This document shows positions 27,097 to 32,258 of a stretch of DNA of 64,000 nucleotides, piece after piece. Source of the DNA: Eledone cirrhosa (taxonomy: Eukaryota); the NCBI GenBank assembly GCA_964016885.1, contig OZ024760.1, forward strand, positions 34,224,001-34,288,000, in the 5' to 3' direction. Below the pieces are notes generated by a model, which worked only from the letters and a program-made list of their open reading frames with translations, ran no database searches and had not been told where the DNA came from. The position numbers and the translations under genes are program-made. Each line of letters begins with the position of its first letter. Positions within the stretch are counted from its first letter, which is position 1.

Positions 27097-27113
27097 TAGT
27101 TTTAATATAGAAG

Positions 27114-27164
27114 AGATTCTACAGGACTAGAACTGTTTCATTCATTAGAAATCATCAGGAATCT
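27114..27164 (-). ncRNA. Type I hammerhead in the inverted pLTR
   Basis: Reverse complement of 31933-31983. Confidence 0.75.
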
Positions 27165-27474
27165 GGGTATCAAAAAATAAATATGGTATTTATAGGTCTC
27201 TACAAGTGGTAGGAGAGGGTGGGGAGTGGGATGGGTGCAGGTCATTGGTTGATAGAGAAGGGAATTCATTAAAGGCTAATTCTACATAGCTATAGTTAAT
27301 TTATATTTATTTATGTTTTTAGAGTAACAAAGGCAGACAGAAATCTATAAACAAGTTCCGGATGGCATACCATTCCTTGTCAATAAGTTTCTCTTAAGCT
27401 AGCAGATGTCTATAAAATCAGTGGGGGGTCATTCATGCTCGATAGAATTAAAGGAAAGGGAGATTCTTTAAAAG

Positions 27475-28920
27475 AAGGCAATATCATGGTTCCAAGAATT
27501 ACCCGATAAACACCACACTCGCTTCCTGCAACTCGACATAGAAAACTACTATGCCTCTATCTCGGAGCCCCTCCTGAAGGACGCAATTAACTTTGCCAGG
27601 AATTTTACCACCATTACCGATGCCGAGCAAGTTATTATCCTCCACGCTCGTAAGACCTTTCTATACCACGATGGATCTTACTGGATCAACAAGAAATCTC
27701 AGACCCCATTTGACGTTAGCATGGGGGCGAGTGACTCGGCTGAAATTAGCGACCTTGTGGGCCTGTACATCCTACATAACCTGAAGAACCTCTTTACCGG
27801 CCTTACTGGAGGTTTATACCGAGACAACGGCCTCTTCGCCCTGCATAAGGTTAGCCCCAGAACCACCGATGGGTTTCGGAAAAACTTAAGCTCTTTCTTC
27901 TCTAATCTAGGATTTAGTATTACTATAGATTCTAATTTGACTAGGGCCAACTTCTTAGATGTCACTCTCGACCTAGATACTTCCCTCTATTACCCGTACC
28001 ACAAACCTAACGAGTCCCTTAAATATATTAATGTTAATTCAAACCACCCCCAAAACATTACTGATAACCTAGTAAAAAGCGTCTCTATTAGAATATCTGG
28101 CCTCTCCGCCAACAAAGATATTTTTAATGCATCTGCCTCCTACTACAATGACGCCCTAGCCCGTAGCGGATTTAAAGATAAGATAACTTACCTAGAAACC
28201 ACCGCAAAATTGCAGAGGAGGAATAGACATAGGCAGATTAGCTGGTACAACCCTCCCTTCAATAGAGAGGTATCTACTCCGATAGCTAGGATTTTCTTCA
28301 CTTTACTGAAATTACACTTCCCCATACAACATAGGTACTACACCATCTTTAATAAGAACACTATAAGACTGTCTTACTCCACCACACCTAACCTAGCTAG
28401 GAATATAGCCAACCACAACTCTAAACTAAATAAGCCAACCACCTCCGAAACCAATCCCCGGACTGGGGCTCTATGTAATTGCCTAAATAAGGAAACATGC
28501 CCACTAGAAAACAAATGCCTCACAAACGACATCGTATACAAATGCGATGTCATCTCGGGCACCGAGGATTGCAAAAAAACTTACATCGGCATGACATCCA
28601 ACACCTTTAAGACCCGCTGGTATGCCCATACCCACTCCTTCAGAAGACCGGATAAATCAAACCAAACAACACTCGCCTCCTACGTTTGGGACCTCAAAAG
28701 GAACTCCACCCCCTTCACGCTTAATTGGAAAATACTCCAGAAAGCGCGCTCTTACGACGGAGGACACAAGGGCTGCGACCTTTGTACTTCAGAGAGTTAC
28801 GAAATTTTATTCGCCAAGGGCCCGCTACTGAACAAACTCTCTGAACACTGCCCGAACTGCATGCACAAGAACTTTGCAACATTCAAACACTTTAAGCCAG
28901 TGTTAAAGCCCGATGGCTAA
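27475..28920 (+). pseudogene. PLE RT + GIY-YIG, open frame but 5'-truncated; motif C reads YRDN
   Basis: The frame extends upstream of the tracked Met: KAISWF..FLQLDIENYYASI..FDVSMGASDSAEISDLVG..GLYRDNGL..CNCLNKETCPLENKC..IVYKC..YIGMTSNTFKTRWYAH..CDLCTSE..LLNKLSEHCPNCMH. Confidence 0.93.
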
Positions 28921-31900
28921 AAACGACCTCCCCCTATTGGCCCCTATACCTCCTCCCCACCCTACCCCCACCCCTCCTCAACCTGAAATACGGCCACTAT
29001 GGTCATGTGAGTACCTCTTTTGTATCTACTTTTTCTGCCTGTAGAGGTGTCTTTATGTGCCTGTGTATATGCGTATATTTACTGAGTACCTATTTACTTG
29101 TATGTGTATATATTTGTTTGTATATGTGTATATGTGTATGTGTTGTGTGTGTATATATATATGTATGTGTATGTGTATATATATATATATGTATATATAT
29201 TATATATATATGTATGTATATTTTATATATATATATATATATACTATATATATATGTGTGTGTTGTGTGTATGTATATATGTGTATATATACATATGTTT
29301 GTGTGAATACGTGTTTTATGTGTGTATATTTATGCAGGTATATGTTTGTATGTGTCTGTATTTATGTTTGTATGTATGTATGTATGTGTGTGTATGTATG
29401 TATATCGTATGTGTGTGTATATATATATATATATATATATATATGTATATATATATATGTATATGTACGTATATGTATGTGTATGTATATGTGTGTGTGT
29501 ATGTATGTGTATATGTATATGTATGTTTTGTATATGTGTGTGTGTATATATTTGTCTGTATATATGTGTATATGTGTATATGTATGTGTATGTATGTGTA
29601 TATATATATATATATATGTATATGATATATATATATAATATGGATATATATATATATATATATTTATGTATATATATATATATGTGTATATATATATATG
29701 TATATATATATATGTGTGTATATATATATATATATATATATATATATATACGTGTGCGTGTGCGTGTGTGTATGTGTGTATATGTGTGCGTGTGTGTGTA
29801 TATATATATATATATATATGTGTGTATATGTATGTGTTTGTATGTATGTATATGTATATATGTGTGTATATATATGTGTGTGTATTTGTGAGTGTATATG
29901 TACATATATGTGTGTGTGTGTATGTACGTATGTGTATGTATATGTATGTGTATATGTATATGCATGCGTGTATATATATATATGTATATATATGTATATA
30001 TATATGTATGTATGTATGTGTATGTGTATGTGTGTGTATGTATGTATTTGTATGTGTCTGTGTATATATGCATACATGTATATATATATATATATATATA
30101 TATATATATATATATATATATGTATATATATATATATATATGTATGTATATATGTGCATGAGAGAGAGAATGTGTGTGTGTATATATATTTTGTGTGTGG
30201 GTGTGTGTATGTGTGTATGCACGCGTGTGTGTGTGTAAATATATATATATATATATATGTGTGTGTGTATGTGTGTGTGTATGCGTGTGTGTGTATATAT
30301 ATATATATATATATATATATATATATATATATGTGTGTATGTATATATGTGTGTGTATTTGTGCGTTATATCTCTGTATATATATGTGTATATTTATGTA
30401 TAGGTCTGTGTATGCATGTGTATGTTTGTGTATGTATGGATATATGTATGTATATATATATATATGTGTGTATATATATATATATATATATTCATGTGTA
30501 TATATATATATATATATATATATATATATATGTATTTGTATGTGTGTGTTTAGAGAGATATATATATATGTATGTATATGTGTGTGTGTGTATGTATGTA
30601 TTTGTGTATATATATATATATATATATATATATGTGTGTGTATGTATATATATATATATATATGTATGTATATATATGTATGTATATATATATATGTATG
30701 TATGTGTATATATGTGTATGTGTGTGTGTATGTATGTGTATGTGTGTATATGTATGTGTATATATATATATATATATATATATATATATATATATATATA
30801 TATATGTGTGTGTATGTGTGTGTGTATAGATATTTATACATATGTATACTCGTGTTTGTATGTATGCGTGTGAGTGTATTCACTTGTGTATATATATATG
30901 TGTGTATGTGTGTATGTATGTGTATGTGTGTGTGTATCCGTGTGTGTGTGTATATATATATATATGTATATATATATATATATGTATGTATATGTATATA
31001 TATATATATATATATATTTGTGTATATATATGTATGTGTGTATATATATGTGTATATATATATATGTATGTATGTGTGTGTGTGTGTATGTGTGTATATA
31101 TATATATATGTGTATATGTGTATATGTATGTGTGTGTATGTATATATATATATATATATATATATATATATATATATATATATGTATATATATATATATA
31201 TATATATATATATATTATATATGTGTGCGTATGTATATGTGTATATGTATTTTATATATGTATGTATGTATGTATATGTGTATGTATGTGCGTGTACATG
31301 AATATATATTTGTATATATTTATATACTTTTTTTATATATGTGTGTGTGTTTTTATGTGTGTATTTGTGTTTATGTGTGTGTTTATGGTTGCGCGTAAGT
31401 GTGTGAGTGAGTATGTGTGTTTTTTTGGGTTTTTTTTAGGTGTGGTTTTTTTTTTTTTTTTTTTTTTTTTTTTTTTGTGAATGTGTCTGTTGATTTGGCA
31501 TATTGTTGATTAGTTTAAGAGAAGTTCGAAGATAATAGTAAGATATGCACTCAGTATTTTGAATCTGTCTGCAGAATTCCCTAGACCTTTGTCACTTAGC
31601 AGAACTTAATGACTTTAGCTTTTAAAGAATCTCCCTTTCCTTTAATTCTATTGAGCATGAATGACCCCCCACTGATTTTATAGACATCTGCTAGCTTAAG
31701 AGAAACTTATTGACAAGGAATGGTATGCCATCCGGAACTTGTTTATAGATTTCTGTCTGCCTTTGTTACTCTAAAAACATAAATAAATAAATATAAATTA
31801 ACTATAGCTATGTAGAATTAGCCTTTAATGAATTCCCTTCTCTATCAACCAATGACCTGCACCCATCCCACTCCCCACCCTCTCCTACCACTTGTAGAGA

Positions 31901-31932
31901 CCTATAAATACCATATTTATTTTTTGATACCC

Positions 31933-31983
31933 AGATTCCTGATGATTTCTAATGAATGAAACAGTTCTAGTCCTGTAGAATCT
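31933..31983 (+). ncRNA. Type I hammerhead ribozyme (PLE-2 pLTR)
   Basis: agattc-CTGATGA-tttctaatgaat-GAAAC-agttctagtcct-GTA-gaatct. Confidence 0.78.
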
Positions 31984-32258
31984 CTTCTATATTAAAACTA
32001 TTATACTCTGCTATGTATTGAGTACCTTACTTACTGTGGTTACCTCCGATTCAACCCGGAATAATGTATATATATATATATATATATATATATATATATA
32101 TATATATGTATATATATATATATGTATATATATATATATATATATATATGTATATATATGTATGTATATATATATATGTATATATATATATATATATATA
32201 TGTATATATATATATATATATACAAAAGTGATGCAGATATGTATATATATATATACAT

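Follow-up and report, generated by a model that had tools for sequence, protein, structure and literature searches.

A young Penelope-like element of Eledone cirrhosa with kilobases of its own target microsatellite as probable passive cargo

The 64,000-nucleotide stretch of the Eledone cirrhosa genome analysed here ("the window"; C21:34,224,001-34,288,000, contig OZ024760.1 of a 3.0-Gb assembly, about 1.1 Mb from the contig end) contains several Penelope-like elements (PLEs), among which the one called PLE-2 is our main subject. A reading made from the letters alone (the sequence-only reading) had placed about 2.3 kb of TA/TG/TATG microsatellite between the stop codon of the PLE-2 open reading frame (ORF) and its hammerhead-bearing end, with both ends of the element lying in (TA)n, and this layout is what we found in the window:

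26783-27096, no strand assigned: left target array (TA)nTG, a flank outside PLE-2
27097-27474, minus strand: PLE-2 inverted arm, the distal 378 bp of end B, terminating at the "short" end and without microsatellite
27475-28920, plus strand: 5'-truncated PLE-2 ORF, last ~480 of 713 amino acids, with the reverse transcriptase (RT) core, a CxCx5C linker and a GIY-YIG endonuclease; stop codon at 28918-28920
28921-29110, plus strand: anchor A, the unique start of the PLE-2 3' region, with a faint likeness to PLE-2's own hammerhead-plus-tail end
29111-31477, plus strand: carried compound microsatellite (the PLE-2 spacer), TA/TG/TATG, with a T-rich stretch at its end
31478-32064, plus strand: end B, with a type I hammerhead motif at 31933-31983, a predicted cut after 31977 and a ~60-nt tail
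32065-32260, no strand assigned: right target array (TA)nTG, a flank outside PLE-2

In this copy, the TA/TG/TATG sequence runs for ~2.27 kb, up to ~31380, and is followed by the T-rich stretch and then by the unique end B; its ORF has YRDN at the site where other copies have YRDD. The sense strand of the spacer has a G content of ~0.20 and a C content of ~0.02, with ~28 runs of (TA)6 or longer, written (TA)6+, per young copy. The whole unit was read from tandem copies in two of the collected stretches (L003 and L022; L numbers designate collected sequences), in which end B directly precedes the ORF start and leads straight into a 713-amino-acid ORF: the repeating unit thus consists of ORF, anchor A, spacer and end B, with tandem periods of 5,394 and 5,174 bp (unit 5.2-5.4 kb). 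PLE-2 copies terminate at two fixed end points that are separated by ~60 nt, take 82 and 52 of the 156 end matches and adjoin (TA)n: an array of at least 20 bp lies next to 66/76 tail ends and 56/69 short ends, and most of the others adjoin shorter TA runs. Many copies are head-to-head arms. The sequence-only reading had further described the microsatellite as part of the terminal repeat, which is correct for PLE-1 (see below) and for four PLE-2 copies that have the spacer in both arms (L011, L033, L034 and L048), but not for the window PLE-2, whose inverted repeat consists of 378 bp of B only. Rfam gave no match for the PLE-2 hammerhead region, and the hammerhead was called by motif. Separately, the summed contig depth over the hammerhead end (L003:3820-4017, window ~31880-32064) exceeded the depth over the ORF start ~1,000-fold in runs X1, X3 and X4, an excess that fits a swarm of 110-170 bp foldback ends, depth not being equal to copy number.

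PLE-2 stretches were collected from across the genome by their best matches to four kinds of query: B (38 stretches), the ORF end plus A (20), older B (20) and the protein (20). Every one of the 94 A anchors in the collected sequences led into microsatellite: 82 of these paired with B, 5 left their stretch still in microsatellite and 7 entered gaps, insertions or other sequence. In the 82 A-B pairs, which include copies selected by ORF end or protein and not by B, the net spacer length ranged from 1,056 to 3,301 bp (median 2,321), and A was never adjacent to B. Measuring spacing and composition between the two unique anchors, as the sequence-only reading had proposed, thus returned 1.06-3.3 kb of microsatellite in 82/82 pairs, in agreement with its claim that these elements transport kilobases of microsatellite. 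The sense-strand composition was also constant, with G at 0.19-0.20 and C below 0.02 in every PLE-2 age class.

The spacers of different copies are moreover related to each other by descent with their element. All 31 other young spacers shared 59-87% of 674 PLE-2 marker 14-mers, in the same order (rho 0.965-1.0). The 20 tract-strands of the window used as controls shared 0-34 of these markers, and none of 50 Markov simulations exceeded 132 markers or a rho of 0.52. Distances between spacers followed distances between B ends (Mantel rho 0.92, n=73; best of 999 permutations 0.46), including among 49 young copies (0.70), and the two spacers of two-armed insertions were mutual nearest matches in 6 cases out of 6. 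Marker sharing dropped from 75% at less than 0.5% B divergence to 6% at 6-9%, indicating a turnover of the spacer at least two to four times that of its flank; by 6-9% flank divergence, spacers were past recognition. The two arms of one insertion differed in spacer length by 12-24 bp in young pairs and by up to 260 bp in old pairs. An A-to-B junction pattern built on one donor/acceptor pair gave 0 matches in the genome, compared with 155 for the anchor alone; no A-to-B joint was seen either among the matches listed for contigs of four runs on the B-ORF-A stretch, although such contigs cannot address splicing.

The window holds a second, older PLE-2 copy with insertions of its own:

13797-17587, plus strand: older-subfamily PLE-2 copy, right arm, with anchor A, spacer (1.6 kb net) and end B without tail
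11716-13790, minus strand: mirror-image left arm of the older copy, spacer as far as the start of B
~12278-12793: short (ATC)n-headed repeat interrupting the left arm
14901-15082, no strand assigned: nested 180-bp hairpin element in the older spacer, with matches in 38 of 199 collected sequences, window included
15320-16560, minus strand: nested 1.24-kb insertion with a hammerhead core in the older spacer, with matches in 20 collected sequences

As proposed from the letters, this copy has both PLE-2 anchors (A 91% and B 88% identical to the young family) and is independent of its neighbour. Its microsatellite had been called similar to that of the window PLE-2, which is true of composition, but the two spacers could not be aligned (27/674 marker 14-mers, rho 0.00); the older spacer instead matched those of older copies elsewhere (L059-L061, L070 and L072; 22-35% of markers shared, rho 0.78-0.99). 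A local duplication or an assembly artefact, the alternatives raised by the sequence-only reading, was ruled out as the source of this copy, given its older subfamily and the kin of its spacer at other loci. Two side observations belong here: an older PLE-2 subfamily has a ~94-bp tandem duplication inside end B (L059:5228-5878, L060:6253-6964), and the 14901-15082 element contains a near-perfect 103-bp palindrome, with a tail motif resembling a PLE tail and without a canonical hammerhead core.

Carried microsatellite is itself used as a landing site, as had been suggested, both by the same family and by others. In PLE-2 spacers at 98% identity or above, we counted 6 blocks of non-microsatellite sequence in 119 kb (in 5/51 spacers, one block being a local foldback), compared with 21 in 29.6 kb of old spacers below 93% identity (11/18 spacers), so that insertions climb with age from 0.05 to 0.71 per kb; a hammerhead core was present in 12 of 30 inserted blocks. 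In the older set L059-L078, 0 interruptions were found in 13.1 kb of ORF plus A and 14 in 17.6 kb of spacers (10.4 expected, P 3e-5). In L100, a two-armed PLE-2 lies within a PLE-2 spacer; (TA)n is found at each of its junctions, and the outer halves are collinear with sibling spacers. Other guests include a PLE-1 end in the PLE-2 spacer of L074, a PLE-4 in the old PLE-2 spacer of L068, and tandem hammerhead-bearing, retrozyme-like units in the young PLE-2 spacers of L029 and L056 (310-bp period in L056). A 98% copy of a long interspersed nuclear element (LINE) of the window lies inside the old PLE-2 spacer of L072, and the 1.24-kb insertion of the older window copy recurs inside the PLE-1 spacer of L079. 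The window itself contains four nested insertions (5831-6110, 12278-12793, 14901-15082 and 15320-16560). The LINE is located as follows:

23062-26782: young LINE, containing endonuclease and RT frames and terminating in a short tandem and (TA)n

PLE-1 was expected to have the same design with anchors of its own and with its microsatellite repeated in the inverted arm:

1585-4826, minus strand: PLE-1 main arm, with a broken ORF (4826-3480), mosaic microsatellite (3479-1906) and terminal end E (1905-1585; cleavage triplet GUA)
3120-3290: internal end copy M in the PLE-1 microsatellite, hammerhead cleavage triplet GUG
4826-6370, plus strand: PLE-1 inverted arm, with ~1 kb of microsatellite and end E again; nested 280-bp insertion at ~5831-6110

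This expectation was borne out by 21 ORF-to-end pairs, 4 ORFs remaining unpaired. The PLE-1 protein has 710 amino acids and is ~44% identical to that of PLE-2. Its tract measures 1.0-1.9 kb (two longer ones contain inserts) and is a mosaic of 74% TA/TG dinucleotides with unique islands, one of which is a second hammerhead-bearing end located ~220 bp past the ORF-proximal anchor. This internal copy has the cleavage triplet GUG in 28/28 cases, and the terminal end has GUA in 30/31. Hammerhead cleavage triplets obey the NUH rule, which GUG violates. An old end with a broken cleavage triplet, followed by target tract and a new end, is what would be expected to remain after read-through capture, and the mutated internal hammerhead thus suggests, from sequence, that PLE-1 grew by capturing target DNA.

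A third cargo-bearing family, PLE-4 (813 amino acids), which had escaped the sequence-only reading, was exposed by a fixed-position genome sample and is also represented in the window:

7500-8720, plus strand: truncated PLE-4 copy (third cargo-bearing Hydra family), the last ~250 bp of spacer and a ~930-bp unique end with a long-stem-II hammerhead motif

In 20/20 loci selected on its ORF, PLE-4 had a collinear spacer of 1.69-2.71 kb. It forms tandem runs with a spacing of 6.4-6.9 kb (for example C1:183740716-183760766), and its unit is 6.4-7.1 kb by tandem spacing. The family is very young, with its top 40 ORF matches ~100% identical (window 7754-8720; L159-L178), and the stem II of its hammerhead motif is ~115 nt long and its stem III palindromic when inspected by eye. 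PLE-4 ORFs that are 99-100% identical nevertheless have spacers of two length classes, ~1.7 and ~2.4 kb. In a quick RT tree whose in-tree rows were unnamed homologues, PLE-1, PLE-2 and PLE-4 fell in separate lineages, and an approximately unbiased (AU) test on 18 rows rejected a single clade (p-AU 2.6e-43). The nearest in-genome relative of PLE-2 (L103/L185) has a 3' region of only ~300 bp, and PLE-3, a relative of PLE-1 found in 24 stretches, has a shared 3' region of ~1.4 kb with only ~100-200 bp of TA/TG, showing that kilobase cargo is not general. The tree does not separate repeated gain from repeated loss; gain is likelier because no published Hydra family exceeds 3 kb. Other Hydra-like families have low-complexity 3' regions of other kinds, such as (CT)n, (ATTTTT)n or AT-rich repeat (L018:6552, L059:2370 and L079:7224 onward), and the 3' regions of Hydra-like elements seem prone to bloating.

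By their motifs, these elements belong to the Hydra clade of PLEs. The PLE-2, PLE-1 and PLE-4 ORFs (713, 710 and 813 amino acids) contain an RT followed by a C-terminal GIY-YIG domain, with YRDD and Y..YIG/YVG motifs. The Pfam support for GIY-YIG was weak (E 0.067 for PLE protein P0001, none for P0122; nothing at threshold). All three have DKT rather than DKG, together with RWK in PLE-1 and RWR in PLE-2 and PLE-4; a motif scan found the CxCx5C linker and the CxxC and CxH around the endonuclease E and N, and CCHH was absent from the translations when inspected by eye. The hammerhead core and stems I and III were recognised by sequence near the 3' end, with a stem II that is weak in PLE-2 and ~115 nt in PLE-4; the minimum-energy fold of the PLE-2 motif is not a hammerhead. 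An assignment to the Naiad/Chlamys PLEs, which have an N-terminal endonuclease and a CxC domain and lack a canonical hammerhead, was excluded by the C-terminal endonuclease and the hammerhead motifs. Of the other traits of the clade, insertion into (TA)n is present, but the generally short length (<3 kb) is not, the units measuring 5.2-5.4 and 6.4-7.1 kb. According to the sections of PMC8557442 on this clade, that length is a tendency and not diagnostic. PLE-2 is therefore a young Hydra-clade PLE by its motifs, deviating in length, the named Hydra references having been compared by eye only.

The resemblance to the clade described by Craig et al. (2021, PMC8557442), in the sections used here, includes the ORF with RT and C-terminal GIY-YIG, the motifs, the 3' hammerhead, the (TA)n targets and the tandem or inverted arms with a tail, and extends to Hydra-1_Obim, which measures 2,507 bp with its hammerhead at 2,403. 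The 27 Hydra families listed there are 1.1-3.0 kb long, compared with 5.2-5.4 kb for PLE-2 and 6.4-7.1 kb for PLE-4, which have 1-3 kb of microsatellite between ORF and hammerhead. The Hydra consensus ends in the available portion of that source (five whole and most of a sixth) are without long microsatellite, Repbase Hydra sequences standing outside the comparison. In the same portion of the supplement, the last consensus before the Hydra file continues from its stop codon straight into ~40 CA units, a published PLE-internal microsatellite of small size.

The sequence-only reading had also proposed that each insertion creates new landing sites and that the resulting feedback could explain the composition of the whole window. 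Neither proposal was supported. In a sample of 40 fixed-position 10-kb stretches (400 kb), TA/TG/CA tracts made up 10.2% of the bases (7.5-13.1%), or ~300 Mb genome-wide. Assignment by anchors placed 5,144 of 40,810 bp of sampled tract inside cargo-bearing elements (12.6%, 95% interval 0.9-25.7%), with 48 of 739 (TA)6+ runs; it replaced an assignment by 16-mers (18%), which was dropped for false PLE-2 calls on pure TA arrays. The candidate totals of the DNA searches (1,458-2,278) hardly differed from search to search and did not serve as copy numbers. Exact genome-wide counts were 155 for PLE-2 anchor A and 1,291 and 1,826 for the PLE-4 anchors flanking the spacer, which gives ~3-4 Mb of cargo, or ~1% of TA/TG tract, with PLE-1 uncounted and diverged copies missed; this cargo holds ~25,000 of some 5 million (TA)6+ runs. 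The sample contained 3 PLE-4 anchors when 0.24 were expected from the exact count (P 0.002). It also contained 7 short, cargo-free PLE-2-like ends in 6/40 stretches, extrapolating to ~50,000 in the genome, and the comparison with 155 copies of anchor A indicates that less than 1% of PLE-2-type insertions carry the whole spacer. In the window, ~7.5 of 31.1 kb of TA/TG tract (24%) lies inside cargo-bearing elements, and the remaining 76% consists mostly of G-poor (TA)nTG arrays. Arrays that flank elements are randomly oriented relative to them (23:23 and 19:25) and thus behave like pre-existing targets; the random polarity also led us to reject flanks made by the element itself through telomerase-like addition. 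The feedback loop is therefore real but small, accounting at present for ~1% of the TA/TG tracts of the genome. One regularity of the window stands apart: between 207 and 52743, nearly all long (TA)nTG arrays have their G on the plus strand (G 0.05-0.15, C ~0.00-0.02) whatever elements lie inside them, arrays at 41415, 56914 and 62102 being exceptions to this polarity.

Altogether, we consider it probable that PLE-2 is a young Hydra-clade PLE in which ~2.3 kb of TA/TG microsatellite, present between the anchors in every long copy, is transcribed and reverse-transcribed as passive cargo. The endonuclease would cut a run of TA, and reverse transcription, starting just past the hammerhead from one of two sites, would proceed back through the spacer, by analogy with another PLE studied in vitro (PMC11167929). 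Most events would end within 100-200 nt and leave no cargo, and long ones would leave one or two spacers. Once deposited, the spacer undergoes slippage, and its turnover is several times that of its flank, while it remains kilobase-long and TG-rich on the sense strand. As for its origin, a short new 3' end may have landed in microsatellite downstream of a full copy, after which a read-through RNA would have fused ORF, old end, microsatellite and new end, the old ribozyme being disabled.

Several points weigh against this interpretation. Transcription through the spacer is something that we infer, and a capture origin is clear, from sequence, for PLE-1 only; in PLE-2, A resembles the tail weakly, and this resemblance was noticed post hoc (26 of 2,000 shuffles were as good). 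Passive cargo explains neither the persistence of a 1-3 kb spacer in every subfamily, down to 86% identity, nor the placement of TG on the sense strand in all three lineages. The PLE-2 copies were drawn from the top 40 matches of each search and lean towards young and intact ones. The comparison of interruptions in ORF and spacer is biased, since a large insertion in the ORF would displace the remainder beyond the 10-kb stretch. Finally, the carried share in the sample (12.6%) exceeds the ~1% from exact counts; we trusted the exact counts and report the conflict.

The spacer might alternatively be a retained intron or another functional RNA part of the pseudo-long terminal repeat (pLTR), spliced from the mRNA, kept in the reverse-transcribed RNA and selected to remain long and GU-rich, in which case transport would still occur. 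In favour of this, the spacer is bordered on one side by a donor-like GTGAGT at 29007 and on the other by a long T tract with AG acceptors near 31439 and 31513. Tandem copies have B ahead of the ORF start, making the region an upstream pLTR as well, and the spacer is never lost despite the turnover of its sequence and has the same polarity in three lineages. PLEs also retain introns, Penelope and Chlamys-3_cRei having one in the pLTR or 5' untranslated region according to the relevant part of PMC8557442. We nevertheless regard this explanation as unlikely: net spacer length varies threefold, the older PLE-2 subfamily has a much shorter T tract, and the sister family of PLE-2 (L103/L185) as well as the 27 published Hydra families (1.1-3.0 kb) do without such a region. 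No spliced retrocopy was found at the one junction tested or in the 82 pairs, which also speaks against an intron, although retention would predict the same. Alternatively, A-to-I editing of (UA)n RNA paired with itself could have produced the shared polarity, with reverse transcription making the change of TA into TG permanent. RNA editing is high in coleoid cephalopods, and rare spacer variants include A>G at 41 of 836 A columns compared with T>C at 21 of 1,411 T columns. G>A is, however, equally frequent (41 of 638 G columns), as slippage of TA/TG units would yield, and B and ORF display no excess of A>G (4/436 A columns, with T>C at 16/362 T columns), which makes editing quite improbable as the source of the polarity.

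Whether the carried microsatellite seeds enough targets to account for the TA/TG-rich window and genome is a separate matter. Nested insertions are real, self-nesting included, ~3.8 of the 6.2 kb of long, G-rich compound tracts in the 400-kb sample are PLE-borne, and older cargo would escape notice, with spacers unrecognisable by 6-9% flank divergence. Such a strong feedback is still very doubtful when ~3-4 Mb of cargo from the exact anchor counts (exceeded in the sample by the three PLE-4 matches) is set against ~300 Mb of tract, when 76% of the window tracts lie outside elements and are mostly G-poor, and when most PLE-2 insertions are cargo-free. Lengths that differ between copies and between arms (12-24 bp when young, up to 260 bp when old) indicate that slippage acts locally; that post-insertion slippage or gene conversion made the spacers separately at each locus, or that they are local duplications or assembly artefacts, is hardly credible at all, being refuted by the shared marker order over many chromosomes, the co-inheritance with B, the subfamily-specific patterns and the distinct flanks. 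Beyond passive cargo in PLE-2, a wider proposal has some, minor, plausibility: Hydra-type elements would repeatedly capture target microsatellite, keep it for as long as the family lasts and seed the genome, successive waves having built a large share of the G-rich compound TA/TG tracts and of the nests of TA-targeting elements inside them, with the spacer possibly a functional retained intron. Such waves could hide because cargo becomes unrecognisable within ~6-9% divergence.

Transport of simple sequence repeats (SSRs) by young Penelope copies is known from the shrimp Litopenaeus vannamei, where copies more than 98% identical have syntenic internal SSRs, read as SSRs moving along (Yuan et al. 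2021, PMC7878876). In the parts of that paper used here, transposable elements (TEs) are proposed as SSR carriers in the SSR-rich shrimp genome, "How did TEs carry SSRs?" is left open, and the shrimp Penelope, unlike PLE-2, comes without a clade, kilobase tract, link between cargo and target, nested-insertion test or origin model. Mobile elements also spread simple repeats that later slip as proto-microsatellites of L1 and Alu (PMC3812793, in the part relied on), and MITEs (miniature inverted-repeat transposable elements) with hitchhiking (GTCY)n and Xenopus MITE-borne repeats are known to us by title from the reference list of PMC9659126. A mechanistic parallel is PAc, a Poseidon-clade PLE of Anolis carolinensis, whose tail is defined by two internal starts of reverse transcription and which cuts AT-rich DNA on both strands, hammerhead cleavage being dispensable in vitro (Frangieh et al. 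2024, PMC11167929, in the main text). These two start sites fit the two fixed ends found here, although PAc is of another clade and the word microsatellite does not occur in that main text. Kilobase self-target cargo in Hydra PLEs, its nested use or a trace of capture is not reported in the literature covered, subscription journals, Repbase reports and the shrimp and O. vulgaris supplements being outside its scope; the portions available of PMC13282606 (O. vulgaris repeats), PMC3124438 and 10.64898/2026.07.22.740005 do not describe such cargo. Each PLE-borne tract spans kilobases, with ~15-28 target-type (TA)6+ runs, unlike those of L1/Alu, MITEs or mini-me. Drosophila mini-me/DINE-1 elements provide another example of TE-borne microsatellites. 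To our knowledge, tracts of the L1/Alu, MITE and mini-me kind are between some tens and a few hundred bases long and do not serve their own carrier as insertion target.

These elements give a concrete and countable answer to the question left open in the shrimp work, of how retroelements come to carry simple repeats, and directly demonstrate that a target-specific retrotransposon can deposit its own targets. In practice, a repeat library that halts at the first (TA)n will break these elements into two entries, an ORF and a hammerhead repeat, and any marker placed in PLE-borne tracts will be multi-copy. One 2-kb compound microsatellite is moreover present in dozens of copies of equal age, a natural series in which slippage can be measured. 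The effect on genome composition looks modest; if repeated capture and seeding were true, the carried microsatellite would amount to a self-seeding niche for TA-targeting elements.

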